Positions 2,889 to 34,464 of a DNA stretch of 64,000 nucleotides are shown in pieces. The stretch spans positions 928,001-992,000 of the forward strand of contig OZ242005.1 in assembly GCA_965204725.1 (NCBI GenBank), read 5' to 3'. Source of the DNA: Candidatus Latescibacterota bacterium. GTDB taxonomy: Bacteria > Latescibacterota > UBA2968 > UBA8231. Within the stretch, counting starts at the first letter, position 1. The number at the start of each line of letters is the position of its first letter. The notes beneath the pieces were generated by a model that worked only from the letters and a program-made list of their open reading frames with translations, had not been told where the DNA came from and searched no databases. A program made the position numbers and the translations under genes.

Positions 2889-2930
2889 CCATTTGACAGC
2901 CGCGTTAGGCTAAACCAACTTGGAAGGAAA

Positions 2931-7862: not shown

Positions 7863-7863
7863 T

Positions 7864-8193: not shown

Positions 8194-8243
8194 TGGATCT
8201 CCTACCTTTCTAAATTAAATGGTGTGTACCGGTTTTTGGCCGG

Positions 8244-9647
8244 TTATGAATTGTTCCGAATTTGGTCAACGTCATCCTGATCGGGCATGAGCATAAACTC
8301 AGAATACGCTTCGATTCCGAGTTCTGCGGTATCTTGGCCGAGCTCTTCAACGCTCTGCGACACCCGCACGCCGATTATCTTGCCCAGAACCAGCCACGTG
8401 AGCCACGAAGCTACAAACGCGAACACGCCCACCGCTAGCACCCCGATGAGCTGGACGCCGAAATTGCCACCGGCTGCAATGCAGACCGCCAGGGTGCCCC
8501 AGATGCCGGCGAACAAGTGGACCGGAATCGCCCCTACTATGTCGTCCAACTTGACGATCTCTAAGAACCGTATCCCGGCGACGCACAACACGCTGCCTAC
8601 AGCACCGATTATGAGTGCCCAGTAGTGATCGACGATATCTGGCCCGGCCGTAATGGAGACGAGACCGGCGAGTGCGCCGTTGAGAACGGCGACCAGATCG
8701 ATGCGGCCTAAGAGGGGCCGCGACAAGAAGAGAGCAGCCATGGCGCCGGCCGCCGCGGCAAGGTTGGTATTCACGAGGACATGGCTCATGGCGACAGCAT
8801 CGGTCGCGCTCGACAGCGCGAGCTGCGAGCCGCCGTTGAAGCCGAACCACCCCAGCCACAAAATGAAGACTCCCAAAGTCACGGCGGGGACATTGGAAGG
8901 CGGCGTGTTCTTGACGCTGCCATCGGGGCGAAATTTTCCGTACCGCGCTCCGACGACGATTGCCCCGGCGAGTGCTGCCCAACCCCCGGTCGAATGCACG
9001 ATGGTTGAGCCGGCGAAATCCTGAAACCCCATTTCACTGAGCCAGCCGCCGCCCCAAGTCCAAGCTCCGATGACGGGATAGATGATCATCGTCAACACAG
9101 CCGTAAAAATAAAAAACGCCCACAGATTCACCCGCTCGGCCAGCGTACCCGATACAATGGAAGCGGTCGTCGCCACGAAGACCATCTGAAAAAACCAGTC
9201 CGACATGGTGGCATAGGACTGGCCCTTTATCAGGGCTGCGGTCGCCGTTGCTTTGGCTGCATCGGTCGCTGCATCCAACAGCTTGAGCTCTTCGCCCGAA
9301 GGCCCGTATAAAAACTTGAGAGAGCCAATCCAGCCTCCCCCCACATCGACGTACATGAGGTTGTAGCCAATCAAGTAATAGGTGATCCCGGCAATCGAAT
9401 AAAGCCCGACGTTCTTGAGGCAGATCATAGAGGCATTCTTGGTGCGCACGGAGCCGGCTTCGAGCATGGTAAAGCCCGCGCACATCCACATTACGAGCGC
9501 GCCCCAGATAAGAAACGAGAAGGTGTTGAAGACGAATTGCAGGTCTTCGCCGCTTGCGGCATAGACCCCGGTCGCTCCCATTAGGATGCCGCTGGCCGCG
9601 ATAAATCCGCCCACCCGCAATGCATCGCCACTAGACTTTCTAATCAT
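8244..9647 (-). CDS. amt: Ammonium transporter (Amt family)
   Basis: FFQMVF, DFAGSTIVH, WFGFNGGS, DDIVGAIPVH; twin His and Phe gate present. Confidence 0.93.
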   Translation of the reverse strand: MIRKSSGDALRVGGFIAASGILMGATGVYAASGEDLQFVFNTFSFLIWGALVMWMCAGFTMLEAGSVRTKNASMICLKNVGLYSIAGITYYLIGYNLMYVDVGGGWIGSLKFLYGPSGEELKLLDAATDAAKATATAALIKGQSYATMSDWFFQMVFVATTASIVSGTLAERVNLWAFFIFTAVLTMIIYPVIGAWTWGGGWLSEMGFQDFAGSTIVHSTGGWAALAGAIVVGARYGKFRPDGSVKNTPPSNVPAVTLGVFILWLGWFGFNGGSQLALSSATDAVAMSHVLVNTNLAAAAGAMAALFLSRPLLGRIDLVAVLNGALAGLVSITAGPDIVDHYWALIIGAVGSVLCVAGIRFLEIVKLDDIVGAIPVHLFAGIWGTLAVCIAAGGNFGVQLIGVLAVGVFAFVASWLTWLVLGKIIGVRVSQSVEELGQDTAELGIEAYSEFMLMPDQDDVDQIRNNS

Positions 9648-9793
9648 GCCAATTTCCTCCCTTTGGTCGTTTTGGCTGAGTAGATGCTACTCTTGCTCAT
9701 TCTATTAGGTCTATACAATAGCCAATAGCCAATCCTCGCGCAATTACCACGTCACTTTCGAGCCACCAAGCAACAGGTTCTGAATAGCGCGAT

Positions 9794-11530
9794 CTAGTCT
9801 GCGGCCGGCGTCGCGCACTCCGCGACCCGCACGATCGCGTCCAGTTTCTCGCTAATCTCGGGATCAATTTCGCTATCGGGGATGTGCTCGGCCAACTCGT
9901 AGAAATTTTTCTTGGCCATTAGGTTGGGTAGGCCGAGCGTCTTGAAGTAGGACTTGAAGAGCGGGATGAGAAAATCATCGCTGGCTTTGATGTCGGCACT
10001 CCAAGGAGACCCCTTGCCAAGCGTCTTTAGGGCCGATTCTACGTCCTCAATGGCTTGGCTCATCGCATTTTGACGCTTCCCCTGTTCAGCCGACGTAAAC
10101 AGCGATCCCGGCGCAGCATCCGCCGCCGTCGCCCCCGCGTATGCTTTGAGTGTGGCCCGCGAGCAAATGTAGTTTTCGATCTCCCGGCGCTCCCAGATTA
10201 GGTATTCAACCGGGGACAAATCGAGAGGCTCCGATTCAAGGCGATCGAACAGGGCGACTCCACCAAGCGCGGGGAGAGCCTCCCGCAAGCCGTGGTAGTG
10301 ATTCTGAACCGCCGGGAGCTGGTTCCCTACGTATTTGACGAATGGCCGCTCAAGCACCTCAATCGCGCGGTCGTGTCGTAGCCGTCTAGCAAAAGCCTGC
10401 ATTATCGCTAAATCCGTTGAACCCTCTAGGTAGAGTACCCAGCCGGTTTGTTTCGCTTGGTAGTACTGCTCAAACCCGATCTCCCTGAGTGCTTTCAAGA
10501 CCTGACTGCCGCGGTCGTCAATGCGGTGCGGTTGGCCGACGAAAGCAACGACCAAGTCCCGGTCCGCGGCTTCGTTGAGCAGCACTTCAGAGTGACTGGC
10601 GGCGATGATCTGGCTGGTGCTGGCGCCCGCCACATCGGTGAGCAGGCGGTAGATCTGGCGCTGGCGAAGTATCTCTAGATGCGCGTCAGGCTCGTCTAGG
10701 AGCAAGACGGCACCGGGGTTGGCGTACATATATGCGAGGAGCAGCAGCGTCTGTTGCAGCCCCCGCCCGGCGGACGACAAATCGAGCTCAGCACCCTGCT
10801 CGCGATAGGTCATTGCGATCTCGCCGCGCTCGGCAATGTAGCGCGGCGGACGGAGTTTTGAGCCAAACAGGCTCTCAATCTGCTCGACGAGTTCGTCCCA
10901 CTTCGCTTCATCTTCGTCGCGAATCCGAAAACAGAGGTTGCGCAACACTTCGGCGGTGCGTCCCTCGCCGATCCGAACATTGATGGCACCGGCATCAAGG
11001 CGCGTTTCTGTAGCGGTAAGCCCCGACATGGGCGGTAGGAAGGCGGTCTGGACGCTGCGAGCGGCGGCCGGCACCGACATGCGATCGGCGACCGTGTCGT
11101 CAGACAGCCGGAGCGGCCGGCAGTAGAACGATTCGTCATTGGCGTAGTCGAACTCCAGCCCACACGTCCAGCCTTGGCCGTTGGTCACCCCTTCTACGAT
11201 GATGTCGATGCGGATATTGCTGGTGCGCTGCTGGCCCTCGACTCGGCGCACGTCTCGCACGTGTAGCCCACGCCACAGGAGGTTCGCGTCTGGAATCGGA
11301 ATGGCCACTAGGTCGCGGCGGTTGACGGTGACGCCGGGGCGCTTCTCGGGCGTGCTCTTCCCGGATCGCTTCTCGTTCCAGCGCTTGAGGCCGATGTCCC
11401 ATAAGGCGAGTGCCTGCATGGCCGAGGTCTTCCCAGAGTTGTTGGGACCGATAAAGACCACCGGACTCCCGAGTTCGATCTCAACTTCGTCAAAGCGTTT
11501 GAAGTTGTGGATGGTGAGCTTGGTAAGCAT
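9794..11530 (-). CDS. ABC-type ATPase with C-terminal TOPRIM-like domain (OLD-like ATP-dependent nuclease)
   Basis: IHNFKRF, Walker A GPNNSGKT, LSSAGRG, Walker B LLDEPDAHL, ASHS; YLEGSTD...LFDR...EIENY. Confidence 0.75.
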   Translation of the reverse strand: MLTKLTIHNFKRFDEVEIELGSPVVFIGPNNSGKTSAMQALALWDIGLKRWNEKRSGKSTPEKRPGVTVNRRDLVAIPIPDANLLWRGLHVRDVRRVEGQQRTSNIRIDIIVEGVTNGQGWTCGLEFDYANDESFYCRPLRLSDDTVADRMSVPAAARSVQTAFLPPMSGLTATETRLDAGAINVRIGEGRTAEVLRNLCFRIRDEDEAKWDELVEQIESLFGSKLRPPRYIAERGEIAMTYREQGAELDLSSAGRGLQQTLLLLAYMYANPGAVLLLDEPDAHLEILRQRQIYRLLTDVAGASTSQIIAASHSEVLLNEAADRDLVVAFVGQPHRIDDRGSQVLKALREIGFEQYYQAKQTGWVLYLEGSTDLAIMQAFARRLRHDRAIEVLERPFVKYVGNQLPAVQNHYHGLREALPALGGVALFDRLESEPLDLSPVEYLIWERREIENYICSRATLKAYAGATAADAAPGSLFTSAEQGKRQNAMSQAIEDVESALKTLGKGSPWSADIKASDDFLIPLFKSYFKTLGLPNLMAKKNFYELAEHIPDSEIDPEISEKLDAIVRVAECATPAAD

Positions 11531-21721: not shown

Positions 21722-24700
21722 TCAAAGCTCCTGTCCTCGGCTCGCCAACTCCTCCAAATTCCACGCGACTGGGATGCGCATCCGGCCCTCGTTTTTGCGG
21801 TCGAAGAGCAGGTAGTTTTCGCGCAGCCCAAAGTAGAACAGGTCGCGGGTCAGCTCTACGTCCTTTTGGCAATAGTCGGCAATCAAGTCCAGCCGCCCCT
21901 GTTTGAACCACCTAAGCGCGTCGAGCCCGTCGGCGCTCTTGGGCGCGTTGAGCGTGGCCCGGCCTAGTGAGTCGAGACTCACTCGGTAGCGTAGCTGCTG
22001 GTGGACCTCGCGCAGAATATCGAGCGTGTTGAGCTGGCGGAAGTCGAATGGGCTATACCCGCGCAAGACCGAATAGTCAAAGCCAAGGATGTTGAAGCCG
22101 ACGATCAAATCGGCCGCCTGTAAGTGCTCTAAGAGCCGGTCGATGTCTTTCTCAAGATACGTGGTGCAACCCTGCTCGTGGCTGTCCCACACCACGCCGA
22201 CCGACAGGCCCATCAGATGGGCTTTGTTCCAGCCGCCAACTTCGGCGGCCGAGCGCTGGGTTTCGAGGTCGAACACGACCACGCGCGGGCCTTGCTCGGG
22301 CCGCTCGTCGGCTGCGCTTTCTTCTTCTTGTTCCCACTCGGCGAAAATCGGCGGAGCGTCTGCGACCTCGGCTGTAGATGGAGTGCGCTCAATGGCCCGA
22401 TGGCCGGTGAGTACGCCGAGCAGGTGGATCGCGCCGGCCTTGTCGAGGGGGACGTTGCCCGCGCCGCATGTGGGAAAGTGGATACAAGAGGGGCAGCCGA
22501 TCAGGCAATCGCAGGTTTCGACCATGGTCCGCGTCAGGTCCAAGAGGCGGTCGAGTTGGGCAAAGCCCTTTTCGGCGAGGCCAATGCCGCCGGGGTGATA
22601 GTCGTACACGAAAATCGCTCCTTTGCCGAGTTGTGGGTGCTGGGGATAGCATATTCCGCCGACATCCGTGCGGTCGCACAAGGCCAGCAGGGGGAAGAGC
22701 GACTTCACGGCGTGTTCAATGGCGTGGATCGAGCCCATGTAGTGGTGCTGGTGGCGGCTGAGGTCGGCCTTGAAGTGGGCGTCGAGCTCAATCCAGAAGC
22801 CTATGGTCTCAACGTGCTCCACCGGCGATTCGAGGGGGTGTTTGCTGAGGACGACTTGGTCGCCGACGCGGATCTTTTCGTAGCCCACCACCTGCGAGCT
22901 GACCTTGAGCCGGCCCAGCCGCGCCATAAAGCCCTGCAACGGCCGCGAGCGCAATTCCTCTAATATCTCGGTATCCTTTTCCGTGCGGGCGCGGGTAAAG
23001 TACGCCACGTGTACTTCCTCGGCGTAGATCTGGCCCTGCTGGGGATTGCGGTCGCCGATCTCGTACTGGCGGCCGCGATGCAAGTAAATCGCGCCTTTGT
23101 AGCACTCGCCATGCACTTGGCCGCCGCTGACCGTGCCGATTGGGTTGTGGTCGCGGTCGACGATGCGATACGACTCGCCGATGGTGCGCATGTTGACCAA
23201 GCGGTGCGGCTGCTTGCGGGCGGCAAACCAAGCGTCGCCCTCGGCATTCTGCAGCAGCGCCCCCTCCTCAGTCAGCGCGTCAAGGGTCGCCCGATAGTTG
23301 GGCAGCGCGTACTCGGGTTCGCCGGCCGCGAGGGGGAGCTCGCGCGCCGCACACGCGAGGTGGTTTTTGAGGATGTACTGATTAGTCGGGTCCACTACGG
23401 CGTCCTCCAAATCGCGAGTAAAAAACTCCTTGGGGTGCCGCATAAAATACTGATCGAGCGCGTCGGGAGACGCGATGAGGAGGATTAGGGACTCGCGGCC
23501 AGCGCGGCCCACGCGGCCGGCACGCTGCCAAGTGTTGATGATAGAACCCGGATACCCCACCAACACGCAAATATCCAAGCCGCCGATGTCAATGCCCAAC
23601 TCCAAGGCCGACGTGGCGACCACGCCCATGAGTTGGCCGGCGTTGAGTGCCTGCTCAATCTGGCGGCGCTCGCTGGGCAAATAGCCCGCGCGATACGAGG
23701 AAATCCGCGCCTGCAAGTCGGGGCGGCTCTGGGTGGCCCAGCGGTACACGAGCTCGGTGGTGATGCGGGCGCGGGTAAAGACAATCGTGCGATAGTCCTT
23801 GAGTACGCTGGCGCGCAGCACGTGCGCCGCGAGGGTGTTGGGGCTTTCGCTCGGGTTGACAAACACAAAGTGGCGCGTCGCGGCCGGCGCGCCATGGTCC
23901 TCAATCGCGCAAAAGGAGCGGTTGAGCAACTCGCCCGCTAGCTCGCGGGGGTTGCCCATCGTCGCCGAGCTGGTGATGTACACCGGATCGGCCCCGTAGT
24001 GCGCACAGATGCGGTTCAAGCGGCGAAAGAGGTGCAGCACGTGGGAGCCAAAGACGCCGCTGTACGCGTGCAATTCGTCGATGACCACGTAGCGCAGGCG
24101 AGCGAAAAAGCCGGCCCAAGCCTCGTGGAAGGCGAGGATGCCCGAATGCAGCATGTCCGGCGTGGTGAAAAGCACCTGCGGCGGCGTGGTGCGAATTTGC
24201 CGGCGGCGGTGGGCCGGGGTGTCGCCGTCGTAAATAGCCGCTTTCAGGGTGCCTCCCAAGCCCAGCATCAAGCCGTTTAACTCGTCGAACTGATCCTGCT
24301 CTAGGGCCTTGAGCGGGAAGATGTAGAGCGCGTGCGCGTCCGGGTCGTTGAGCAGCGTGGCCAGTACGGGTGCGTTGTACACTAAGGTCTTGCCCGAAGC
24401 CGTGGGCGTGGCTAGGGCCAAGTGCTGGCCTGCCAACACTTTTTGGATGCCCTCGGCTTGGTGCGTATAGAGCGCGGGAATGCGGGCGATTTTGAGGATG
24501 CGGGCCAAGGCCGGAGGCAGGCCCGATACGTCGCGGACTAGGCGCGCCGGGCGCGCCGGCAAGGTCTGGTGATGGACGACCTCGTTGCCCAAGATGCGGC
24601 GTTTGAGAAAGCGGATGTGCTCGGCGAGCCCCTCGGCGTCGCAGATCAAGGCTTGGTTTCCTGAAACAGGGTGGCGAAAACGAGCGGGGCGGAGAGTGAG

Positions 24701-24754
24701 AATAGCGAAGCCGTTGGAATGGGGCAAGGCGGGCGGCAGCAAACCCCTTCGCAT
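21722..24754 (-). CDS. MrfA/YprA/SftH-like DExH helicase with DUF1998 Zn domain, fused to a C-terminal DEDD (RNase_H_2/YprB-like) exonuclease
   Basis: TPTASGKT, DELH, SAT, TSALELGIDIG, QRAGRVGR, CDC..GCPSC; then FDLET, GFNILGFD, YCQKD. True start is probably downstream of 24754. Confidence 0.85.
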   Translation of the reverse strand: MRRGLLPPALPHSNGFAILTLRPARFRHPVSGNQALICDAEGLAEHIRFLKRRILGNEVVHHQTLPARPARLVRDVSGLPPALARILKIARIPALYTHQAEGIQKVLAGQHLALATPTASGKTLVYNAPVLATLLNDPDAHALYIFPLKALEQDQFDELNGLMLGLGGTLKAAIYDGDTPAHRRRQIRTTPPQVLFTTPDMLHSGILAFHEAWAGFFARLRYVVIDELHAYSGVFGSHVLHLFRRLNRICAHYGADPVYITSSATMGNPRELAGELLNRSFCAIEDHGAPAATRHFVFVNPSESPNTLAAHVLRASVLKDYRTIVFTRARITTELVYRWATQSRPDLQARISSYRAGYLPSERRQIEQALNAGQLMGVVATSALELGIDIGGLDICVLVGYPGSIINTWQRAGRVGRAGRESLILLIASPDALDQYFMRHPKEFFTRDLEDAVVDPTNQYILKNHLACAARELPLAAGEPEYALPNYRATLDALTEEGALLQNAEGDAWFAARKQPHRLVNMRTIGESYRIVDRDHNPIGTVSGGQVHGECYKGAIYLHRGRQYEIGDRNPQQGQIYAEEVHVAYFTRARTEKDTEILEELRSRPLQGFMARLGRLKVSSQVVGYEKIRVGDQVVLSKHPLESPVEHVETIGFWIELDAHFKADLSRHQHHYMGSIHAIEHAVKSLFPLLALCDRTDVGGICYPQHPQLGKGAIFVYDYHPGGIGLAEKGFAQLDRLLDLTRTMVETCDCLIGCPSCIHFPTCGAGNVPLDKAGAIHLLGVLTGHRAIERTPSTAEVADAPPIFAEWEQEEESAADERPEQGPRVVVFDLETQRSAAEVGGWNKAHLMGLSVGVVWDSHEQGCTTYLEKDIDRLLEHLQAADLIVGFNILGFDYSVLRGYSPFDFRQLNTLDILREVHQQLRYRVSLDSLGRATLNAPKSADGLDALRWFKQGRLDLIADYCQKDVELTRDLFYFGLRENYLLFDRKNEGRMRIPVAWNLEELASRGQEL

Positions 24755-24768: not shown

Positions 24769-25941
24769 TTATCGAAAAATGTGCCCCACGTCGGTAAAAT
24801 GCCGCACGCTGGCATGGGACAGTTCCGGGGTGAGATGGCCGGCGTAGATGACGTAGCCTTTCTGGGTGGAGGCCGCGATCTGCTGGAACTGCGCGATCCC
24901 TTTGGCAAACTCTGGATGAAACGTCATGGCCGATTTGATTTCAATGGGGATTAACTGCCTGTTTTGCCGGAACAACAAATCGACTTCGTGGCCTTTGTTG
25001 TCGCGGTAAAAGTAGAGTTCAGGTTCTTTTCCCGCGTTGAGTCTGGCTTTCAAGGCTTCGATGACGATCATGTTTTCAAAGAGATTGCCGATCAGTGGAT
25101 CCCGGGCCGCCAGCGCGGGCGATTCAATGCCGAGCAAGTAGGACGCGAGCCCGACCTCGGTAAAATAGATTTTGGGCGATTTGACGATGCGTTTGCCAAA
25201 GTTTTCAAAATAGGGCTTCAACCTGAAAACGGTGTGCGATGCTTCGAGTACCGAGAGCCATTCTTTGAGCGTGGTGCTCGACACCCCCACGTCGTTGGCC
25301 AGCGAACTCAGATTCAAAACTTGGCCGACGCGGCCGGCGAGCAGGCGCGTGAAATGCTCAAAATCGGTCAGGCTCCTCAGATGGATCATTTGCCTAACGT
25401 CGCGCTCGATATAGGTTTGACAGTAATTTCGGTACAGGCGAGTCGGATTGACTTTTTCGCTGTACAGGCGGGGCATAAAGCCCTGATAGATCCATTCGTC
25501 GCGCGTGTGTTTGATGCGGGTCGCTTTGAGTTCGGCTATCGACAAGGGGAGCAGGCGCAAGAGGGCCGTGCGTCCGGCGAGGGATTGAGCAACGGTTTCT
25601 TGCAGACGCAACTGGTGGTGGCCGGTGAGAATGTATTGCCCGCGTTGCTGGCTGCTGTCCGCGAGGACTTGGATGGTTGAGAGCAGTTCGGGTACGCGCT
25701 GAATTTCGTCGATAATAACGGGCGGGGGAAATTGCGAGAAGAACGCGTGGGGATCGCTCATCGCCAGCCGGCGCACATCAGGTGCTTCGAGGTTTGCATA
25801 AGCGTAATTTGGAAACTGCATCCGCGCCAACGTGGTTTTTCCCGCTTGCCGTGGACCGATGATGGTCACCACGGGAAATTCGCTTGCCGTCGCGACCAAT
25901 TCTCTGGCAATTTGTCGCAAAATCACGGTTTTAAGCTCCAT
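24769..25941 (-). CDS. AAA+ ATPase (AAA_14) with C-terminal DUF4143/PD-(D/E)xK domain
   Basis: GPRQAGKTT, IIDEIQRVP, KSPKIYF, FEN, EVDLL..PIEIKS. Confidence 0.85.
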   Translation of the reverse strand: MELKTVILRQIARELVATASEFPVVTIIGPRQAGKTTLARMQFPNYAYANLEAPDVRRLAMSDPHAFFSQFPPPVIIDEIQRVPELLSTIQVLADSSQQRGQYILTGHHQLRLQETVAQSLAGRTALLRLLPLSIAELKATRIKHTRDEWIYQGFMPRLYSEKVNPTRLYRNYCQTYIERDVRQMIHLRSLTDFEHFTRLLAGRVGQVLNLSSLANDVGVSSTTLKEWLSVLEASHTVFRLKPYFENFGKRIVKSPKIYFTEVGLASYLLGIESPALAARDPLIGNLFENMIVIEALKARLNAGKEPELYFYRDNKGHEVDLLFRQNRQLIPIEIKSAMTFHPEFAKGIAQFQQIAASTQKGYVIYAGHLTPELSHASVRHFTDVGHIFR

Positions 25942-26073
25942 TCGCGTTGATGCTACGCGAGGAGAAAATAAAAGGATCGGTACAGATCTCAAGTTACACT
26001 TGAAATTTGTACCGATTTTCAGGCATACCAGTTGCCGCGCAACTTGGAAGTTGATGGCCGCGAACCCGTCGTT

Positions 26074-26111
26074 TGCTTGACAAATAAAGCAAATGCTCTA
26101 CATTCTAAGCA
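26074..26111 (+). promoter_or_regulatory. sigma70-like promoter overlapped by two tandem palindromic operators
   Basis: TTGACA 26077-26082, 16-bp spacer, TACATT 26099-26104; TGCT-N10-AGCA at 26074-26091 and 26094-26111. Confidence 0.65.
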
Positions 26112-26142
26112 TATTAGTTGAAAGGCCGGAGGTCATGTGAGC

Positions 26143-26487
26143 ATGAGTCACGAAGAGCAACTCGGTTCCTACCTCAAACGCGCTCGGAATACTGCGGGTC
26201 TGACGCTGCGGGCGGTTGAAGGGGAGACCGGTATATCTAACGGATACCTTAGCCAACTCGAGAGTGGCCAAGTGCGGCGTCCATCGCCGATGAACTTGCA
26301 CAAGCTGAGCGAACTCTATCGGCTACCCTATGCTGAAGTGATGGAAGCAGCAGGGTATCCTATACCTTCGACTCAATACAGCAACGAAGAACAGCGGTTC
26401 TTCGCGAGGCTTGGGGAGACTTCTAATGAAGAGAAAGAGGCACTGCTGGAGTATTTGGAGTTCATGCGAACTCGGAGAAAGCGGTAA
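26143..26487 (+). CDS. XRE-family HTH transcriptional regulator
   Basis: LKRARNTAGLTLRAVEGETGISNGYLSQLESG..PS; GGAGG RBS; start is GTG 26137 or ATG 26143. Confidence 0.9.
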   Translation: MSHEEQLGSYLKRARNTAGLTLRAVEGETGISNGYLSQLESGQVRRPSPMNLHKLSELYRLPYAEVMEAAGYPIPSTQYSNEEQRFFARLGETSNEEKEALLEYLEFMRTRRKR

Positions 26488-26493
26488 CACATA

Positions 26494-27435
26494 ATGAGGT
26501 GGTCAGTGTCGAAGGCAAAGCAGTTCCAACGTTGTCAACGCCAGTGGTACTACAAGGAGATCGTCGGACGCCACTCTGCACCGGCGGGCAGTACTCGGCG
26601 TGAAGTCTATCTCCTCGGATTGCTGAAAAGTATCAGCCAGTGGCGCGGAGATATAGTCGATAACGTCCTCACTAGGGCCTTTCTCACTTGGCACAAGCAC
26701 CAGGTACGGCTCGATCCCGAAAAGATAATCTTCAATGCACGACGACAGTTTGATGAGCAGCTTGCCGTTGCAAGAGAGCATCACCTGCACAAGCCGGGTC
26801 TCACTCCATCGAAGTGGGAAAATTTCGTCGCATTCAGATGCATGGAATACGACAAGTCCATCCCGCAAGATGAACTGGATGCGGCTTGGCAAGAGATCGA
26901 ACAGGCGATCCGGAATCTATTCGAGATGCGCCCCGTTGCTGAGGCTATGCAGGGTACCAATGCGCTGGTAGCGCAACGCTCGTTGCAGTTCCAGCACTCG
27001 GACATGAACGTAGTAGCCAAGCCCGATTTGGTGGTCTTCTCCAAAGAAAGGCCACCCGTGATCATCGACTGGAAGGTGCATGCTTTCGGTGTTCAAGAGG
27101 CTTGGTTACAGCTTGGCATCTATGCCCTTGCTCTTTCACGTGCGAAACCGCACAAGGATTTTCCCCAAGATTGCTGCTCGTGGGCACCTACCGACGTTAA
27201 ACTCCTCGAAGTGCAATTGCTCAAGCAGGATTTAAGGGAATACCAGCTTTCCAAGAGGGATGTTACCCGTCTGGAAAACCATATCGCCACGACAGCGTAT
27301 GAGATGCTGTCTGCTGTCGGAACCGTGCGACCGAAATATGAGGACTTGATCCCCGAAGACTTCACTGTGACGCGCTATCCGACTACGTGCCAACAGTGTT
27401 CATACAAACGCGTTTGCTGGGAGGGAGAGGCATGA
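26494..27435 (+). CDS. Cas4/AddB-like PD-(D/E)xK nuclease with putative Fe-S cluster
   Basis: WSVS..FQRCQRQWYY (one N-terminal Cys), KPDLV...IIDWK, QLGIY, C-terminal CQQCSYKRVC. Confidence 0.85.
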   Translation: MRWSVSKAKQFQRCQRQWYYKEIVGRHSAPAGSTRREVYLLGLLKSISQWRGDIVDNVLTRAFLTWHKHQVRLDPEKIIFNARRQFDEQLAVAREHHLHKPGLTPSKWENFVAFRCMEYDKSIPQDELDAAWQEIEQAIRNLFEMRPVAEAMQGTNALVAQRSLQFQHSDMNVVAKPDLVVFSKERPPVIIDWKVHAFGVQEAWLQLGIYALALSRAKPHKDFPQDCCSWAPTDVKLLEVQLLKQDLREYQLSKRDVTRLENHIATTAYEMLSAVGTVRPKYEDLIPEDFTVTRYPTTCQQCSYKRVCWEGEA

Positions 27436-29813
27436 GCATGCTCGAAACCAACATCTTCGCCATCGAGAATCTGGATGCGCTGAAAACGGACTACGTTCTT
27501 TACAGAATTCGAGGTCTAACGAGGGGAGACAACGAGTATTTCCAGAACAAGGACGAGATCGCGAGAAAGCTAAGCTATGACCTCCAGAGGCCGGCACTCG
27601 TGATCGAAAGAAACGGCCACCCGTACCTCGTACTGCCCGCTGACACGCCTCCCCCGCCGCAGCCATTCTCACTTGTACGTGTGCAGGTGTACCTCGACAA
27701 ACAGAAGGAGTCGCTCACACTCGACTATGCGAAGCGGAATCATGAGACCGACGATATCTGCCTTCGCTTTCTCAACTTCTTCGCAGTCCAAGGCAGGTAT
27801 CGCAATGACAAGCGTTTGTGGCAACCGCGGTCCGGTCAGCCCTTCTTTGAGTACAAACCAGTCAAGACGATCAGAGGAATCGATGTCTTCCAGGGTTTCT
27901 CCGCCCGAGCGGTCATCACGCCCGACAATGGGATTGGCATTTGCCTCGATCTGCGCACGAAGTTTGTCGCGAGCAAGCCCCTTGACGCTAGACTGAAGCG
28001 TGACGGGTTCAGGCCATATCGCGGACAGCACTTCATCTATCGGTTCAAGGGCTGGTATGGGGTGCAGCTACAGGACTACTGCGATCTGAACGCCTCTGAA
28101 GCTCACATCGATACCGGAAACTGCTCAGTTTACAAGTACCTCAGACGCGAGTCCCCCAAGCCGCTACCTCAGCAGCTTGCCAATCTCCCTCGGGACGCAG
28201 CACTCGCCTACTACCAGACAAACCGCGGAAACCGTGTATACGCGAGTGTGGGCCTTTGCCATCTCATCTATGACACGCGGCATCCTGAGGTTCAGCGCCG
28301 GCAGGGGATGATGACCCCACAGCCCCACGAACGGGATCGCAAGATCCAAGAATATGCAGCCAAGTATCTACAAGGATTGCAGCTCGGACGCACTCGGCTT
28401 GAAGTGTCGCGTACGCCCATAACGGCACCCCGCAAGGTGTTCCAAGCACCAGATATCGAGTTTGGGGGTGAACACGTGCTCTCCGTCCGCCGGACGGCGG
28501 GTGCTCACATAGCGACTATGGATACACTGGGAAAAAAGAAGCAGCGGTTGCTTATGCGTGAGGACGCAGGCTTCTTCGTCAAGCGTCTCCTTGGTCCGCA
28601 GTACCTGATTATGCCTGAGAGCGTTTACAAGACATGGGGGAAACAGTATATCAAAAATTTAAAGCAGACGGTTGAACGGCTCTACGGTCCAGCCGAGCGA
28701 GACGAAGTACTGCCAGACGTACCCGTGTACGACCCGAAGGTAATCACCTACAACGACTGTGACTCAGGTCATACGTATGTCGAGCAGGGACGGGCAATCT
28801 TGGATGCCGCCGAGAAACATCGAGTGCGTGGTGGATACGGGTTGATAATGATTCATGACGCCTCGGACCGCGAGGTCAGGCAGGAGGACCAACTCGCCGC
28901 TATGCTCTCCCAGCAGTTTTGGGAGCAGCGTGATATGCGCATTACCGTAAACCATACGAAGACCGGGAGCGAATGCTACAGTCCGGTGAATGGTCAACAT
29001 GGGGCGTACGTTGTGAACCCGAAAAAGCGGGGCAAGCTCAATGGCTACCTACGCAATGTGGCGTTAAGTAAGATCCTTCTGAACAATGAAATGTGGCCGT
29101 TTGTCCTAGCCACCCCACTGCATGCGGACGTGACGATCGGCCTCGATGTGAAGCGCAACACAGTGGGCCTGACAGTCGTGAGCGATGGCGGACGCAGCAT
29201 CGCGACCTTATGTCGCAGGTCCAGTCAAAAGGAGAAGCTGACCCGCCGTCAGATCGAGACGCTCCTGACCGAACTGTTGCGCCATACAGCCGAGAAGCAG
29301 GCCGTCAAGGAGATTAAGGAGATCGTCATTCACCGCGACGGGCGGAGCTTCCAGTCCGAGATTGACGGTGCAATCAACGCGAAGAAGACCCTCCAAGCGG
29401 AGGGCCTCCTTCCTTCTGACGTGCGCATCACGATCTTGGACGTAAGCAAGACAGCCATGACTCAAGTGCGCCTATTCGACGTGAAGCGCACAAACGGTCG
29501 CTTACTACGGGTAGAGAACCCACAGAACGGCACGTACGTCTTTCTAGGAAATCAGGATGCGTACTTATGCTCAACAGGGCGAGAGTTCGGGCACTCCGGC
29601 ACCACCCAGATGTTGCATGTGCGGTATGAACTGCCTGGGCTGCCGTTTGAGCAGGCACTTGAAGACCTGTACTACCTAACGACGCTGACGTGGAGCAAAC
29701 CTGACGACTGCTCGCGCTACCCAGTGACGATGAAGCTGACCGACAGGTGGTTGTGGCAGGATGCAACGGAGTACAACCAAGACGTGCTCGTATATGGCGT
29801 CGAGGAGGGTTGA
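27432..29813 (+). CDS. Long prokaryotic Argonaute (793 aa), predicted catalytically active
   Basis: PIWI motifs IGLDV, QKEKL, IVIHRDG, ENPQNGT, LYYLTTLTWS, YPVTMKLTD; MID/PIWI junction YLRNVALSKILL..WPFVL; ATG overlaps the nuclease TGA. Confidence 0.9.
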   Translation: MSMLETNIFAIENLDALKTDYVLYRIRGLTRGDNEYFQNKDEIARKLSYDLQRPALVIERNGHPYLVLPADTPPPPQPFSLVRVQVYLDKQKESLTLDYAKRNHETDDICLRFLNFFAVQGRYRNDKRLWQPRSGQPFFEYKPVKTIRGIDVFQGFSARAVITPDNGIGICLDLRTKFVASKPLDARLKRDGFRPYRGQHFIYRFKGWYGVQLQDYCDLNASEAHIDTGNCSVYKYLRRESPKPLPQQLANLPRDAALAYYQTNRGNRVYASVGLCHLIYDTRHPEVQRRQGMMTPQPHERDRKIQEYAAKYLQGLQLGRTRLEVSRTPITAPRKVFQAPDIEFGGEHVLSVRRTAGAHIATMDTLGKKKQRLLMREDAGFFVKRLLGPQYLIMPESVYKTWGKQYIKNLKQTVERLYGPAERDEVLPDVPVYDPKVITYNDCDSGHTYVEQGRAILDAAEKHRVRGGYGLIMIHDASDREVRQEDQLAAMLSQQFWEQRDMRITVNHTKTGSECYSPVNGQHGAYVVNPKKRGKLNGYLRNVALSKILLNNEMWPFVLATPLHADVTIGLDVKRNTVGLTVVSDGGRSIATLCRRSSQKEKLTRRQIETLLTELLRHTAEKQAVKEIKEIVIHRDGRSFQSEIDGAINAKKTLQAEGLLPSDVRITILDVSKTAMTQVRLFDVKRTNGRLLRVENPQNGTYVFLGNQDAYLCSTGREFGHSGTTQMLHVRYELPGLPFEQALEDLYYLTTLTWSKPDDCSRYPVTMKLTDRWLWQDATEYNQDVLVYGVEEG

Positions 29814-29817
29814 AATC

Positions 29818-30177
29818 ATGAGCGACCGGAGTTTACAATCAGGCTACTACAACACGATCAGCTACCTCGCCGAGCTTCTAGATGAGGCCTTGATGCAGAT
29901 CAAGCTCGCACGGGGCGGCGCACCCTCGTCAGAGGTCGAAAAGGTCTCCAAGATGTTGGAAGTAGCGGCTAGCGAGGAGTGCCGCGATCTCTCGACAGCA
30001 TTCCTGCGCTTGATCCTTCGAGATGAGCTAGGAGAGCAACAGCAGGCTTGGCAAGAACTAAGCGTACGACTTGGGCAGGGAGTGTGCGACGAGCATGACG
30101 TAGAGATGATGGAGCGGATTGCTGAAGTCGTGGACACCGAGCGGGCGTCGGCGTTTCGCAAAATGAGAGGGTTCTAG
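29818..30177 (+). CDS. Hypothetical alpha-helical protein (119 aa) in the pAgo operon
   Basis: ATG 4 nt after the pAgo stop with a GAGGAGG RBS; its TAG abuts the next GTG; no family recognised. Confidence 0.7.
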   Translation: MSDRSLQSGYYNTISYLAELLDEALMQIKLARGGAPSSEVEKVSKMLEVAASEECRDLSTAFLRLILRDELGEQQQAWQELSVRLGQGVCDEHDVEMMERIAEVVDTERASAFRKMRGF

Positions 30178-31308
30178 GTGTTTGAGGAGTATATCAATGG
30201 AACTCTCGGCGAGTTGGAACGACGGGCACGAGTACTGCGGGCAAAAATTCCGCGAGACCTGCCAACCTACTATGCAACGCTCGTGAAGTCGTGCAACGAA
30301 CGGCTTAAAGAACTATTGTTTGCCCTCCGCGACCTGCGCGATAATCCTGCGTGGCAGGATGAGAAATTTCGCCCAGAGCGCCAGCGGCGTCTGCGCAGGA
30401 TCGTGACGGCTCTCGACAGGCTGGAGTCTGGCGGCATCACGGCCCTCTGTCGTGCGAACGAGGACGACCATTACTTCAACGGTCTGCTCGAACGCCTTCG
30501 ACGGGAAATCAAGTATCCGGGAGAACTGCCCACGGTCTCCTCGCTCTCGCAGCGTTACTTCTATGTCGATACGGATCTCAACCTCATGAGTGTACCGTTG
30601 GCCGAGCGACATTTTCTTCTCCATTTGCCGGATCTTTACCATGAACTAGCGCACCCACTCTTGGTAGCACGCGACGATTCGGTCATCGAGCCCCTACAGG
30701 ATAGGATGTTGGAGTCGGCGGCGGTGGCGATGGAGCACTTTCACACGATAGCACACGAAAGGGAAGGTGGGCGCACTCCAGAGCAGGAACGGAATCGGCT
30801 GCGGACATGGGAGTTCTACTGGGGCAAGTACTGGATCTTCGAGTTCTACTGCGACCTGTTCGCCACCTACACCCTAGGACCAGCCTTCGCGTGGTCACAC
30901 GTGCATCTGAGTGCCAAGCGGGGCGTGAACCCGTACGACTATTTGATGGAGCAGCATCCGGCCGACGCTGCGAGGATGTCCGTGCTCCTCATCGGCCTGC
31001 GCGAGATAGACTATGATGAAGAGGCGGAGGCAATCGCTAGGGTGTGGCAGTCGGTGATCGGCTCGTCGAGCTATAAGCCCCCGTCCGATTTCAGGACGTG
31101 CTATCCCCAAGATATGCTCGAAAAAATAGCCAAGCAGGGCCTTGAAGGAGTTAAAGCGATCGGATGCCGCATCGCACACGCTAAGTGCGATGACGAAATC
31201 CACACGCTCCTGAACGAGGCTTGGCAACGGTTCTGGGATAACCCGAGCGAGTACGCCGCTTGGGAGGATCAGAGGACGAGGAAGTTATCTAAATCGCGTC
31301 TGGCTTAG
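30178..31308 (+). CDS. Putative soluble Zn metallopeptidase (HExxH, gluzincin/M48-like motif order)
   Basis: YHELAHP, downstream EFYCD, then QHPADAAR; no signal peptide or TM stretch seen. Confidence 0.62.
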   Translation: MFEEYINGTLGELERRARVLRAKIPRDLPTYYATLVKSCNERLKELLFALRDLRDNPAWQDEKFRPERQRRLRRIVTALDRLESGGITALCRANEDDHYFNGLLERLRREIKYPGELPTVSSLSQRYFYVDTDLNLMSVPLAERHFLLHLPDLYHELAHPLLVARDDSVIEPLQDRMLESAAVAMEHFHTIAHEREGGRTPEQERNRLRTWEFYWGKYWIFEFYCDLFATYTLGPAFAWSHVHLSAKRGVNPYDYLMEQHPADAARMSVLLIGLREIDYDEEAEAIARVWQSVIGSSSYKPPSDFRTCYPQDMLEKIAKQGLEGVKAIGCRIAHAKCDDEIHTLLNEAWQRFWDNPSEYAAWEDQRTRKLSKSRLA

Positions 31309-31362
31309 ACTGGATCCCATACTTTTCAACTATATAGGAGCCTTTAGGGGCGGCGGTTGACT

Positions 31363-34300
31363 ATGCTTCAAATAGATTACAGCGATCCAAGATACGAGAA
31401 TGCGGCGGCGGCGATTCTGCAACGGCACGACAATAATGAACCCGAGGCTAATATCACTAGTGCGGTGCGGGACTTTTTGCTCTGCACGGGATTGGTTGAT
31501 GCCAATGAAGTCGCCGAGGAAGTGGCACCGTCGGGGCACTCGGTGCGGGCTGTGGATTTGAAGGCGTCAAACACGTTTATCGAAATCAAGAAGCGCGTCA
31601 GCACGACCGGCGGCTTTAATCCCAATGAAATCTATGTGAAGCAGTTGGATAAATACTTGGCGGAATCCATGACGTACGAGCGGAAAGCGCGGATGGGCGT
31701 TCTCACAGACGGGCGGTACTGGCTCCTGCGCTGGCCGAATGCCGGCGAGGTCAAAACGACTAAGCCCTATGCTTTTACCCTAGAATCGACGGCTGACTGG
31801 CTGCTTTTGTACGAGTGGCTGCGCGACGAGGTCATCGGTACGCAGGATGACATTCCGGCTCGGCGCACTGAGGTCGAGCAGAATTTTGGGCCTAACAGCC
31901 CGTTGTATCGGCGGGATATTGACGCCCTAAACTTGCTCTACCAAGGAGCGAAGGACCGCGAAACCGTCCGCGTCAAGTGCCGGCTGTGGGAAACCTTGTT
32001 GCGAGCGGCGTTGGGCGAGATTGCGCAGACGCCCGACGAGCTAGACGATCTGTTTGTCCGGCACACGTACCTAAGCATGGTCATCGGCATGGTGGTACAG
32101 GCGTACTTTGGCATGGATATTCGGCAACGGGCCGCTAATGATCCAACGGATTTGCTCTACGGACGGCAGTTCCGCGATGACACCGGCCTACAAGACATTA
32201 TTGAGTCCGATTTTTTTGCGTGGCCGGCCGAAGTGGGTGGGGAGCCGCTCATTGCGAGGATGGCTGAGCACGTAGCCCGCTTTAACTGGAAGGAAGCCCC
32301 CGCCGACATCGCCGCAACTTTATATGAAGCGATTATTCCGCCAGATGAACGCCGCCAGTTGGGTGAGTATTATACCCCAGAATGGCTGGCGCAGGCGATG
32401 GTGCAGGAGGTCGTAACGGACCCGCTCGGCCAGCGGGTTCTCGACCCGTCTTGTGGCTCCGGCACGTTTATCGCCGTTGCGGTGCGCCACTTTGTCGAAG
32501 CGGCCACACAAGAGATGATGGATCCCAAAGAGGCGTTGAAGCGGCTGCGAGAGGCGGTGATGGGTATTGACGTGCATCCGGTGGCGGTACGGCTGGCTCG
32601 CACGGCTTGGGTAATGGCAGCGCGGCCCCTCCTCGAAGCGGCCACCAACGCTGGGTATGCGGGAAACGTAGCGATACCTGTGTATTTGGGGGACGCCTTG
32701 CAGTTGCACTACCAAACTGGCGACTTGTTTATCAGCGGCGATATAGGCATTGAGGTGGAGGGCGATGAGTTCGACAAAAGGCTAATTTTCCCGATTCGTT
32801 TGGTGGAACAAGCCGACACGTTTGATCGGCTGATGAGCGACATTGCCGATGCGATTGAGCGCGGCCACGATCCGCTCGTTGCGCTGGACGATCACGGGAT
32901 TACGGACCCGAACCAGCGACAGACGCTGGCGACGACGATCGGGATCATGCAGGAGCTACACGCCGAAGGGCGCAATCATATATGGGCGTATTACACGCGC
33001 AACTTGGTCCGTCCGGTGGCGTTGAGCCGGCGCAAGGTCGATGTGATTGTCGGCAACCCGCCGTGGCTGAACTATCGCAATACCGCTAGCGTGTTGCGCG
33101 ACAAGCTGGTGCAGCAGAGCAAGGAGCTATATCACATCTGGCAGGGGGGCCGCTATGCAACGCATCAAGATGTCGCCGGACTTTTCTTTGCCCGTAGCGT
33201 CGCGCTCTACCTGAGAACTGGCGGCATCATCGCCATGGTGTTGCCGCACAGTGCGCTGCAAACTGGGCAGTACGCCAAGTGGCGCACGGGACAATGGGGC
33301 GATTTGGCGGTGAATTTCGGCTACAAACCGGCGTGGGATCTGGAAAAACTTGAACCGAACACGTTCTTTCCGGTTGCATCGTGTGTCGCGTTTGCCGAGT
33401 GGATGGGTGAAAATGCCAAAGCGACGCCCTTGAGCGACGAGGTTGAGCAATGGCAGGGGACGACTGGGGCGGAGGATGTGCGGCGGGAGCGGATGGCTAT
33501 TACGGATACGTCGGTTGGTGGAACATCGCCATACGCGGATCGCTTTCGGCAGGGTGCTTCCATTGTGCCGCGCTGTCTTTTCTTTGTCCATGAGGTCGAG
33601 GGCACCACCCTTGTTCGCGCCGCGCAAACCGTTAAGGTGGAGCCGCGCCGAGGCAGCAACGACAAAGCACCGTGGAAGACGCTCGATCTTACTGTTATCA
33701 CCGAGCAGACGATAGAGAAAACGCACTTGTTTGACGTTCACTTAGGAGAGACGGTGGTGCCCTACGCGACGTTGACTCCGCTGAAAGCTCTTTTGCCCTT
33801 AAAACGAAACGACGCTGAACTGCCTGTGGATGCTAATGGAACGGGAAGCATTCATCTCGGTGGGTTGGAACAGCGGATGCGGGGGCGGTGGCAGAAAGTT
33901 AGTACGCTATGGGAGCAGAATAAGGGGGCTAATACCTCTGAGAACTTGCTACAGTGGTTGGACTATCATGGCAAACTCTCGGCGCAACTCGAATGGCGAA
34001 AGAATGACAAGAATGCTCCCATTCGCGTGGTGTACACCGCTTCAGGGCAACCTACGGCGGCGATTATCGAGGCCCATGATACTATAGTTGACTACACGTT
34101 ATTCTGGACACTTTGCAGGGACAATCAAGAGGCCCATTACGTACTCGCCATCATCAATAGTCGCGCCCTGTATGAAACGGCGAAACCATTGATGGCCAAG
34201 GGACAATTCGGGGCGCGCCATTTACAAAAGCACCTGTGGAAATTGTCGATACCGGAATACGATACAACGAACCGTTTGCATCAGAAGATAGCGACCGCCG

Positions 34301-34464
34301 GCCAAGCGGCGGCAAGCGGTGCGGCGCAGCAGTTGAATGCACTACGCCAAGAGCGTGGCGCAGCGGTCAGCACGACCATTGCCCGCCGCGAATTGCGTAG
34401 GTGGCTCGCCCAATCGGACGAAGGCAAGCAAGTAGAGACGTTGGTAAAGCAGCTATTGGCGTAA
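31363..34464 (+). CDS. Type IIG-like restriction-modification fusion (endonuclease, N6-adenine MTase, TRD)
   Basis: VDLK..FIEIKK, LTDG, LGEYYTP, LDPSCGSGTF, VGNPPW. Confidence 0.85.
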   Translation: MLQIDYSDPRYENAAAAILQRHDNNEPEANITSAVRDFLLCTGLVDANEVAEEVAPSGHSVRAVDLKASNTFIEIKKRVSTTGGFNPNEIYVKQLDKYLAESMTYERKARMGVLTDGRYWLLRWPNAGEVKTTKPYAFTLESTADWLLLYEWLRDEVIGTQDDIPARRTEVEQNFGPNSPLYRRDIDALNLLYQGAKDRETVRVKCRLWETLLRAALGEIAQTPDELDDLFVRHTYLSMVIGMVVQAYFGMDIRQRAANDPTDLLYGRQFRDDTGLQDIIESDFFAWPAEVGGEPLIARMAEHVARFNWKEAPADIAATLYEAIIPPDERRQLGEYYTPEWLAQAMVQEVVTDPLGQRVLDPSCGSGTFIAVAVRHFVEAATQEMMDPKEALKRLREAVMGIDVHPVAVRLARTAWVMAARPLLEAATNAGYAGNVAIPVYLGDALQLHYQTGDLFISGDIGIEVEGDEFDKRLIFPIRLVEQADTFDRLMSDIADAIERGHDPLVALDDHGITDPNQRQTLATTIGIMQELHAEGRNHIWAYYTRNLVRPVALSRRKVDVIVGNPPWLNYRNTASVLRDKLVQQSKELYHIWQGGRYATHQDVAGLFFARSVALYLRTGGIIAMVLPHSALQTGQYAKWRTGQWGDLAVNFGYKPAWDLEKLEPNTFFPVASCVAFAEWMGENAKATPLSDEVEQWQGTTGAEDVRRERMAITDTSVGGTSPYADRFRQGASIVPRCLFFVHEVEGTTLVRAAQTVKVEPRRGSNDKAPWKTLDLTVITEQTIEKTHLFDVHLGETVVPYATLTPLKALLPLKRNDAELPVDANGTGSIHLGGLEQRMRGRWQKVSTLWEQNKGANTSENLLQWLDYHGKLSAQLEWRKNDKNAPIRVVYTASGQPTAAIIEAHDTIVDYTLFWTLCRDNQEAHYVLAIINSRALYETAKPLMAKGQFGARHLQKHLWKLSIPEYDTTNRLHQKIATAGQAAASGAAQQLNALRQERGAAVSTTIARRELRRWLAQSDEGKQVETLVKQLLA

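Follow-up and report, generated by a model that had tools for sequence, protein, structure and literature searches.

An HExxH protein and its small partner in a conserved five-gene cassette of PliAgo-group prokaryotic Argonautes

Prokaryotic Argonautes (pAgos) of the PliAgo group take DNA guides and cut RNA, and barely touch DNA (Lisitskaya et al. 2022, PMC9360449). The operons that encode them are said in the same paper to share "the same gene composition", its text names a nuclease together with either a helix-turn-helix (HTH) regulator or a sigma factor, and its discussion leaves the natural role of DNA-guided, RNA-cutting Argonautes open. This operon family was thus noticed in 2022, and the locus described here is a further member of it. 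The locus lies in the 64,000 nucleotides of DNA that were analysed (hereafter the window), which are positions 928,001 to 992,000 of the forward strand of contig OZ242005.1, assembly GCA_965204725.1, from a Candidatus Latescibacterota bacterium. It consists of five genes that encode, in order, an XRE-type regulator, a Cas4-family PD-(D/E)XK nuclease, a long pAgo, a small helical protein and a protein with an HExxH motif.

With the PliAgo and RslAgo operons the locus shares a pAgo that aligns from end to end, the DEDD tetrad, the His/Tyr pocket of the MID domain, two group-specific lysines, a PD-(D/E)XK nuclease gene placed before the pAgo gene and an accompanying HTH regulator (PMC9360449). 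It differs from their published description in that the text of PMC9360449 names the nuclease and the regulator and no small or HExxH protein, although the figures and supplements may draw both. A second described system is APACE1, the cyanobacterial pairing of a long-A pAgo with the nuclease ACE1 (Mol Cell 2025, PMC12094033). Like the window locus, APACE1 pairs a DEDX pAgo with a co-encoded Cas4-family nuclease that has a D-DxK motif, one cysteine in its N-terminal part and three in its C-terminal part. Unlike the window locus, it has pAgos that cut DNA and, in the available text of PMC12094033, no XRE, small protein or HExxH partner. The initial annotation of the window had held the XRE gene to be foreign to any characterised pAgo system, a statement that needs qualifying because an HTH regulator is already recorded in the text on PliAgo-group operons (PMC9360449).

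A five-gene cassette with a PliAgo-group Argonaute

The five open reading frames (ORFs) lie on the forward strand with intergenic gaps of 6, -4, 4 and 0 nt. From about 25.5 to 31.5 kb the G+C content is 0.52-0.57, compared with 0.61-0.64 upstream and 0.67-0.70 downstream. The spacing and the lower G+C content relative to the flanks (0.52-0.57 against 0.61-0.70) both agree with what had been noted initially. The XRE ORF runs from a GTG at 26137 to 26487 (116 aa), but the ATG at 26143, which lies 9 nt past a GGAGG and gives 114 aa, is the likelier start. The nuclease gene occupies 26494-27435 (313 aa) and its TGA stop shares the tetranucleotide ATGA with the start of the pAgo gene at 27432 (27432-29813, 793 aa). 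The gene of the small helical protein, a member of an unnamed family, follows at 29818-30177 (119 aa), and the last gene, 30178-31308, has a GTG start and encodes a putative metallohydrolase of 376 aa, likewise of an unnamed family, in which HELAH within the stretch LYHELAHP forms residues 155-159 (H155-E156-x-x-H159).

The pAgo matches the PADLOC model pAgo_II at 6e-260 and, in phmmer, the solved PliAgo chains (PDB 7R8F/H/K) at E 6e-130 to 2e-128, with residues 3-787 aligned to residues 3-780 of the chain. In PliAgo the DEDD tetrad is D563/E592/D626/D762, and its group has an unusual MID pocket, with H498 and Y530 absolutely conserved, and the specific lysines K565 and K759 (PMC9360449). D572, E601, D636 and D771 of the window protein align with the tetrad, H508 and Y539 with H498 and Y530, placing the non-canonical MID pocket in this protein too, and K574 and K768 with the two lysines. 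The tetrad and pocket residues are invariant in 26/26 aligned pAgo homologues. The protein looks active and belongs to the RNA-targeting PliAgo group rather than to the DNA-cutting long-A pAgos of the CbAgo/TtAgo type; by homology it should take DNA guides and slice RNA. The intact tetrad recognised in the initial annotation is therefore upheld by alignment, whereas the accompanying description as a guided DNA nuclease is probably wrong, because the pAgo falls in the PliAgo group, the studied members of which cut RNA with DNA guides (PMC9360449).

The nuclease matches Pfam PDDEXK_1 (PF12705) at 3e-18 and the PADLOC model Aga_Cas4-like_Nuc at 2.8e-108. Its translation contains C14, C299, C302 and C308, the motif D192-W-K194 and D178, so that the PD-(D/E)XK fold, the D...DxK motif and the one-plus-three cysteines of the Cas4/ACE enzymes are all present. 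One-plus-three cysteines and a D-DxK pattern are reported for pAgo-associated Cas4 enzymes, among which the ACE2 clade is uncharacterised and has a mean length of 313 aa (PMC12094033). At exactly that length, the window enzyme is ACE2-like by its size and cysteine pattern, and not by a tree. The Cas4-like assignment made initially stands through the family match; the cyanobacterial ACE work with which it had been connected covers ACE1 (PMC12094033).

Conservation of the gene neighbourhood was read from two collections. A scan with the HExxH protein, one genome per species, gave 107 relatives, and a metagenome scan with a pAgo alignment gave 228. The best-scoring 80 loci of each were kept, so remote relatives may differ, and kinship among many of the loci means that the counts do not stand for independent events. 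The 80 genome loci, the arrangement of which was read by tblastn with the window proteins, bear at least 13 phylum labels. The record labels are Latescibacterota, Gemmatimonadaceae, Planctomycetota, Alpha-, Beta- and Gammaproteobacteria, Acidobacteriota, Chloroflexota, Cyanobacteria, Binatia, KSB1, Verrucomicrobiota, Poribacteria, Nitrospirales, Clostridia and Bacteroidota.

The order XRE-nuclease-pAgo-slot-HExxH was found within about 4.1 kb in 60 of these 80 loci. Three more are complete and stretched by insertions (L044, L047 and L055), one is interrupted by about 5 kb (L069) and one has no XRE match (L029). Five loci from Dehalococcoidia (L032, L037, L040, L049 and L062) lack the upstream nuclease; their order is XRE-pAgo-small-HExxH, and an ORF of 336 aa comes next. 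The copy scanned, that of L032, is a PD-(D/E)XK protein (PF12705, 27.9 bits with a cut-off of 22) that has no BLAST similarity to the window nuclease; all five families are therefore kept there in a permuted order. In another five loci (L001, L002, L018, L065 and L066) the XRE gene directly precedes the small gene and the nuclease and pAgo genes are gone or reduced to remnants, one locus (L057) has the pair only, and four contigs end too soon. The pAgo gene stands beside the HExxH gene in 70 of the 76 genome loci with enough upstream DNA. The slot for the small gene holds a homologous ORF of 117-127 aa starting MS(D/E) in 80/80 loci, and this ORF mostly overlaps the start of the HExxH gene by 1, 4, 8 or 11 nt.

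The metagenome loci, approached from the pAgo, gave the same picture. Where at least 1600 nt of downstream DNA was present (56 loci), a full HExxH gene was found in 55 and a partial one in the remaining locus (L123). With 500-1599 nt (17 loci) the start of the HExxH gene was seen in 12 and no match in five, four of which have only 515-769 nt downstream; the fifth, L155, has a shortened small gene followed by unrelated DNA. Seven loci with less than 500 nt could not be judged. On the upstream side 62 loci were assessable, and 59 of them have both nuclease and XRE. A pattern search recovered the small ORF in 57 of the 68 loci that gave an HExxH match. Eight of the 11 misses were inspected and all eight contain the ORF, with MSY, MSW or MSA starts, and the other three (L144-L146) have the same layout as L143.

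Chance adjacency is excluded because the gene order recurs compactly in 60/80 loci and with insertions or a moved nuclease in 10 more. Together the five genes form a single cassette of PliAgo-group Argonautes, conserved and horizontally mobile. The proposal that they form a single multi-component pAgo system is borne out by this recurrent, colinear neighbourhood, and the last two genes do occur beside pAgo genes elsewhere, in 70/76 genome loci and 55/56 metagenome loci. No conserved sixth gene was found in these loci, the sole recurrent neighbour being the relocated nuclease of the five Dehalococcoidia loci, and 51 pattern matches in viral contigs included no relative. Note that insertions of 1.3-5 kb in or between the nuclease and pAgo genes, with the small and HExxH genes intact, are seen in L169 (genome G039, 1958-9841), L168 (genome G125) and L069.

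Loss of the Argonaute, paralogues and exchange of the regulator

The pair of small and HExxH genes is found without a pAgo gene in six of the 76 assessable genome loci, five of which have kept the XRE gene. A sample of 151 genomes of the phylum was also surveyed, in which the closest relatives are metagenome-assembled genomes labelled Latescibacterota. A full-length HExxH gene is present in 11 of them. An intact pAgo gene is adjacent in five of these, nuclease and pAgo genes are both split by insertions in one (G039), only pAgo remnants are left in three (G149, G136 and G058), and in two (G104 and G096) only the first 60 nuclease codons remain and no pAgo match was found. No PliAgo-type pAgo without an HExxH gene was found in the phylum sample, the only other pAgo match being a weak and partial one in G025 (E 7e-6). 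The junctions of the deletions are not the same in G136 as in G058, nor in L001 as in L002, so losses of the nuclease-pAgo part have occurred several times, with the XRE, small and HExxH genes left open. The HExxH gene is intact in 80/80 genome loci. In genome G055 it is in pieces and the small gene is intact. Among pAgo-less copies dN/dS is 0.11-0.23. Purifying selection after pAgo loss was considered and set aside, as it cannot be dated: the G136 and G058 junctions differ, and dS between G104 and G096 is 0.02.

The genome of the window also contains a distant paralogue pair, at about 3,106,280-3,107,850 of contig C1 (about 3106283-3107851 in G000:C1; L177 4282-5850). Its HExxH protein has 371 aa and the motif HEYGH, and hhalign relates it to the family with 98.7% probability over residues 115-375. 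The partner gene lies upstream and abuts it, and encodes a protein of 150 aa that has no detectable relation to the 119-aa family. This pair directly follows the gene of a 1186-aa type IIG restriction-methylase, and neither a pAgo nor an XRE gene is beside it. A near-identical pair in G028 (L175 3873-5450, reverse strand) follows an NTPase gene split by an insertion sequence.

Plasmid-borne operons connect the pair with the second group of RNA-targeting pAgos. Plasmid pRUNSL03 of Runella slithyformis, which carries the locus of RslAgo (named in PMC13346755), has the same five-gene order, and RefSeq calls three of the products hypothetical. Plasmids of Emticicia and Spirosoma encode a sigma-70 factor, a 180-aa protein, a PD-(D/E)XK nuclease, a pAgo, a small protein and an HExxH protein (L180 790-6948 and L181 946-7101). 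The Emticicia pAgo, the one tested, is MbpAgo-like and belongs to that second group (E 4e-140 to 9WMD). The small protein of these sigma-type operons can be aligned with the 119-aa family over its whole length, if weakly (probability 46%, E 2e-4). Exchange of the regulator thus leaves the pair with RNA-targeting pAgos, and it is to these pAgos, not to XRE, that the pair is tied. The 180-aa protein contains an HTH-like stretch and might be the antagonist of the sigma factor. A motif shared between it and XRE was looked for and rejected (hhalign probability below 1%). Genes for a multiubiquitin-domain protein, a ThiF-family adenylyltransferase and DUF6527 adjoin the cassette on the Runella plasmid (L178 7441-9620), and a multiubiquitin-domain gene stands beside it on the Spirosoma plasmid (L181 1-554); these neighbours look like a ubiquitin-like conjugation defence system on the same island.

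The HExxH protein, its small partner and the regulator

In PADLOC, one of the checks that the initial annotation had proposed, the nuclease, the pAgo and the XRE protein of the window matched models, and neither of the last two proteins has a Pfam, NCBIfam or PADLOC family. Pfam matched 0/30 members of the HExxH family and gave scattered single matches only for the small-protein family, and the ESM Atlas held no usable match to the small protein. The HExxH family is nevertheless large: it comprises more than 683 clusters at 90% identity, all unnamed, and 1250 representatives at 50% identity with E<=1e-3, 316 of which reach 1e-30. The HExxH motif is invariant in 30/30 and 41/41 aligned sequences and present in 80/80 loci, and the family alignment contains the invariant stretch FLLHLPDLYHELxHP together with invariant E222, C225, D226, H241, H243 and H260. 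E222, D226, H241, H243 and H260 are candidates for a third metal ligand.

An AF2 model of the HExxH protein, built from 30 sequences, has a pLDDT of 92 and a pTM of 0.91. It predicts four long N-terminal helices, a three-stranded sheet (119-140), the HExxH helix (151-163) and further long helices, on the C-terminal side, that carry the remaining invariant residues. Foldseek searches of the PDB matched no peptidase, either with the full model (best E 0.44, helical repeat proteins) or with a model of its 172-residue core (pLDDT 81, best E 1.4), and the best match of the model in BFVD had an E of 0.32. A profile search of PDB sequences with the family gave nothing under E 0.2, and no zincin fold was recognised in comparison with solved structures. 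The ESM Atlas returned unnamed clusters only, with Peptidase_U49 and M48 as a hint at 0.78. Peptidase_U49 (Lit, PF10463) was rejected: hhalign against four family members gave 3.2% probability and aligned only the HExxH motif, and PF10463 finds nothing in this genome. Since no peptidase family or fold was matched, catalysis, and proteolysis in particular, is putative. The name "metallopeptidase" given to the protein initially follows from the motif and the predicted topology, not from a family assignment; the motif and a predicted cleft stand behind it, and no peptidase family or fold does. Note that longer forms of the protein exist (P0162, P0175 and P0180). Two family representatives have a C-terminal CHAT match (PF12770) of 36.7 bits (cut-off 24) and 21.1 bits, and one form of 799 aa has a second HExxH stretch. 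These could be true fusions or read-through gene calls.

In the alignment of the 119-aa family M1 is invariant, S2, Y11, D22, L98 and A102 are at least 90% conserved, and the N-terminus is the best-conserved part. When small and HExxH proteins were modelled together the complex scored 0.73, compared with 0.10 for the best of three controls. The mark for this score was reached by 58/80 solved complexes and 2/110 mismatched pairs, counts that apply only approximately, since the alignments were our own. At least 89% of contacts are common to the runs, and the pLDDT of the partner is at least 81. In the model the small protein packs its helices against the N-terminal bundle of the HExxH protein at residues 63-84, while residues 2-13 of the small protein run along residues 127-133 of the HExxH protein and touch 156, 159, 162-163, 222, 225 and 259-260. 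The model thus supports a complex in which the N-terminus of the small protein (Met-Ser-Asp...) lies in the cleft with H155/E156/H159, E222 and H260. Peptides usually bind zincins in the way modelled here, with the N-terminal strand of the partner along residues 127-133, and some of the protein inhibitors known for zinc proteases use a free N-terminus to block the metal. Serine after the initiator methionine favours removal of the methionine, and because serine follows it in at least 90% of the members, the mature small protein probably starts with Ser.

The cassette is preceded by a promoter and two operator-like dyads (26072-26110, +). The -35 box TTGACA (26077-26082) and the -10 box TACATT (26099-26104) are separated by a 16-nt spacer and match in 10/12 positions. 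By itself the promoter scan is no better than chance (four sites found, 5.0 expected), and the promoter is called because of conserved upstream motifs, not because of the scan score. GCTTGAC is present in 108 of 124 distinct regions upstream of the XRE genes of homologous cassettes (shuffled mean 1.0). GCT-N10-AGC dyads lie at 26075-26090 and 26095-26110 of the window, over the -35 and -10 boxes. At least one such dyad occurs in 116/124 upstream regions (shuffled mean 3.45, maximum 10) and at least two in 47/124, with a usual spacing of 18-20 nt. This is the layout expected of an autorepressor, and we infer that XRE binds there. The start of the operon had been placed at 26074, where there is a promoter region and no codon. 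A further promoter-like site at 29810-29839 lies inside the start of the small gene and was hence taken as chance. In many homologous cassettes the XRE ATG is only a few bases past the second dyad and a -10-like box, which suggests leaderless or very short-leader transcripts; the window copy instead has about 30 nt with GGAGG before its XRE ATG.

The XRE protein matches Pfam HTH_31 (7e-13) and, as its best defence model, PADLOC capH (2e-8, positions 6-100 of 103). All 37 XRE homologues scanned matched capH, the best at 3e-14, which is modest, generic HTH models scoring nearly equally. Sequence relatives with solved structures include DdrO, ImmR, ClgR and SinR. In the aligned homologues two conserved parts, an HTH that ends in AGYP(V/I)P and the C-terminal segment AR-G--T--EE-AL-EYL-FLRSR, are joined by a variable linker about 10 residues long.

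Several genes around the cassette in the window are of other kinds. Divergent from it lies the gene of an AAA_14 + DUF4143 ATPase (24769-25992, -) that matches the PADLOC candidate system PDC-S01 at 2e-96 and is syntenic in close relatives (86% identity in L002/G149, a fragment in G055). A DECH-box helicase of 1010 aa (21722-24754, -) matches TIGR03817 at 1e-204, below the model cut-off, has a C-terminal extension beyond that model and is syntenic at 89% identity in L001 and L002. A type IIG restriction-methylase-like gene (31357-34464, +, 1035 aa, NPPW motif) begins 48 nt past the cassette and matches PADLOC REase_MTase_IIG (5e-67) and Pfam N6_Mtase and Eco57I. It is not kept beside the cassette elsewhere, where only L060 has a weak methyltransferase match several kb off, and it counts as a defence gene in its own right within the same low-GC island. 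tRNA genes and flanking direct repeats were looked for near the cassette as marks of an island, and none were found.

Possible functions of the pair

Our favoured reading, a tentative one that falls a little short of an even chance, is that the small and HExxH proteins are a latent metallohydrolase, likeliest a peptidase, and its plug inhibitor, a toxin-antitoxin (TA)-like pair that gives an RNA-targeting pAgo system a second, proteolytic output. XRE would repress the operon at the two dyads over the -35 and -10 boxes, as the conserved promoter suggests. The Cas4-family nuclease would make DNA guides from invading DNA, by analogy with ACE1, and the pAgo, by homology, would load short DNA guides and slice complementary RNA. 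The N-terminus of the small protein would plug the HExxH cleft and keep the enzyme shut, until infection removed or displaced the inhibitor and freed the HExxH enzyme as the second output. The pair is read as TA-like because the upstream small gene overlaps the larger one, the plug is modelled in the cleft, the pair outlives the pAgo, a paralogue pair has defence-type surroundings, one locus shows decay of the large gene first and the type of regulator is irrelevant. A small upstream gene that overlaps a larger downstream gene is also seen in type II toxin-antitoxin pairs; in most of the 80 genome loci the small gene overlaps the HExxH gene by 1-11 nt. Serralysin inhibitors and TIMPs resemble the small protein in the predicted placement of its N-terminus in a metal cleft; unlike them, the small protein has no sequence relation to known inhibitors. 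Several points weigh against the TA-like reading. The HExxH protein has no peptidase family or fold match in Pfam, the PDB or BFVD, the complex is a prediction from our own alignments, and toxin-first decay is seen in one locus only (G055). Retention of the pair after pAgo loss could be due to recent deletions, and these data hold no link between pAgo activity and release of the plug. In addition, XRE appears to be of the repressor class that is cleaved by partner peptidases, which fits the main rival.

That rival, which we consider rather unlikely, is a derepression switch like CapH/CapP, DdrO/IrrE or ImmR/ImmA: on a signal, the HExxH enzyme would cut XRE between the HTH and the C-terminal helix and the operon would be induced, with the small protein as gatekeeper; in sigma-type operons the enzyme would remove the partner protein of the sigma factor. 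CapH-CapP, DdrO-IrrE and ImmR-ImmA likewise combine an XRE repressor having a C-terminal oligomerisation-type helix with an HExxH gene in an immune operon, and the layout of the window XRE resembles that of CapH, which CapP cuts in its C-terminal dimerisation domain (bioRxiv 10.1101/2022.04.27.489752). The capH model was matched nearly over its full length, C-terminal part included, by 37/37 homologues, DdrO and ImmR, each of which a partner peptidase cleaves, are among the nearest relatives of solved structure, and XRE stays beside the pair in five of the six pAgo-less genome loci. Conserved operators, moreover, point to a tight repression that needs a release mechanism. The enzyme fits such a switch less well than the repressor does. 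CapP and IrrE belong to the M78-like peptidases, contain a GAF domain and have their genes beside that of the repressor (bioRxiv 10.1101/2022.04.27.489752), whereas the HExxH protein of the window is of an unrelated family, stands at the far end of the operon, has a small partner of its own and stays when a sigma factor replaces XRE. No PADLOC or Pfam match, GAF domain or fold match of the CapP/IrrE kind was detected in it, and it found no fold match in the PDB although IrrE structures exist there (PDB 3DTI; bioRxiv 10.1101/2022.04.27.489752). The pair persists where a sigma-70 factor and the unrelated 180-aa protein take the place of XRE, paralogue pairs have no XRE beside them, and the enzyme would be the product of the last gene of the very operon to be induced.

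Two further explanations were weighed. It is improbable that the HExxH protein is no peptidase at all, and that the pair is a metal-binding or structural accessory for producing or loading guide DNA, or acts on nucleic acids or small molecules. The failure to match peptidase families or folds and the mostly helical model with its long N-terminal bundle would agree with this, as would the retention of five families even where the nuclease has moved to the 3' end, which suggests one joint biochemical pathway. The HExxH motif is invariant, however, as are further His, Glu and Asp residues, the model has a three-stranded sheet directly before the HExxH helix, with the partner strand along 127-133 in the way peptides bind zincins, and pairs without a pAgo would serve no guide pathway. 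Least probable of the explanations is a direct coupling in which recognition of target RNA by the loaded pAgo activates the HExxH enzyme and the small protein is a tethered substrate, or another target is cut, with a transcriptional or growth-arrest response. Type III-E Craspase and CalpL-CalpT-CalpS are alike in that an RNA-targeting effector is co-encoded with a protease, small proteins and a transcription factor; they are unlike in having CHAT- or Lon-type proteases, which CRISPR complexes or cyclic nucleotides switch on. The pair is almost absolutely tied to both RNA-targeting pAgo groups, the best-conserved part of the small protein, its N-terminus, is modelled in the cleft as a substrate would be, each operon type has a dedicated transcription factor, and putative HExxH-CHAT fusions exist; the support for coupling itself consists solely of the tightness of the association and the analogy with type III CRISPR proteases. 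Set against this, the pAgo is a complete nuclease in itself, PliAgo works alone in vitro (PMC9360449), and intact pairs persist without any pAgo. That the cassette is a full pAgo counterpart of Craspase or CalpL, in which recognition of invader RNA frees the HExxH enzyme, XRE, the sigma partner or a host target is destroyed and induction or growth arrest follows, is also unlikely. Common to all of these readings would be a repressed mobile cassette with an RNA-slicing pAgo and a metal-site protein that has a dedicated partner in its cleft. A link of the system to proteolysis, as had been suggested initially, is plausible.

The text that was searched yielded no description of a metalloprotease or HExxH protein as a pAgo partner; the two genes may stand unlabelled in PMC9360449, in Figure 1b and Supplementary Figure 1. 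Within the searched literature, figures and supplements lying outside it, the two extra families and their near-absolute linkage to both RNA-targeting pAgo groups appear to be undescribed; the same goes for the complex predicted to be plugged, for the conserved operators and for the repeated loss of the pAgo from cassettes that keep the pair.

DNA-guided RNA-cutting Argonautes have so far been studied alone, as tools. In nature they are almost never alone: a Cas4-type nuclease, a dedicated transcription factor and a two-protein module travel with them, under at least 13 phylum labels and on conjugative plasmids too. As RslAgo and PliAgo are already in hand biochemically, the question of what this module does is directly testable. 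If the module is a plugged protease, a function would be gained for two families, the HExxH family with its roughly 1250 representatives at 50% identity and the unnamed family of the small protein, and proteolysis as a means of control or killing, as used by CBASS, type III CRISPR and Avs systems, would extend to pAgo immunity.

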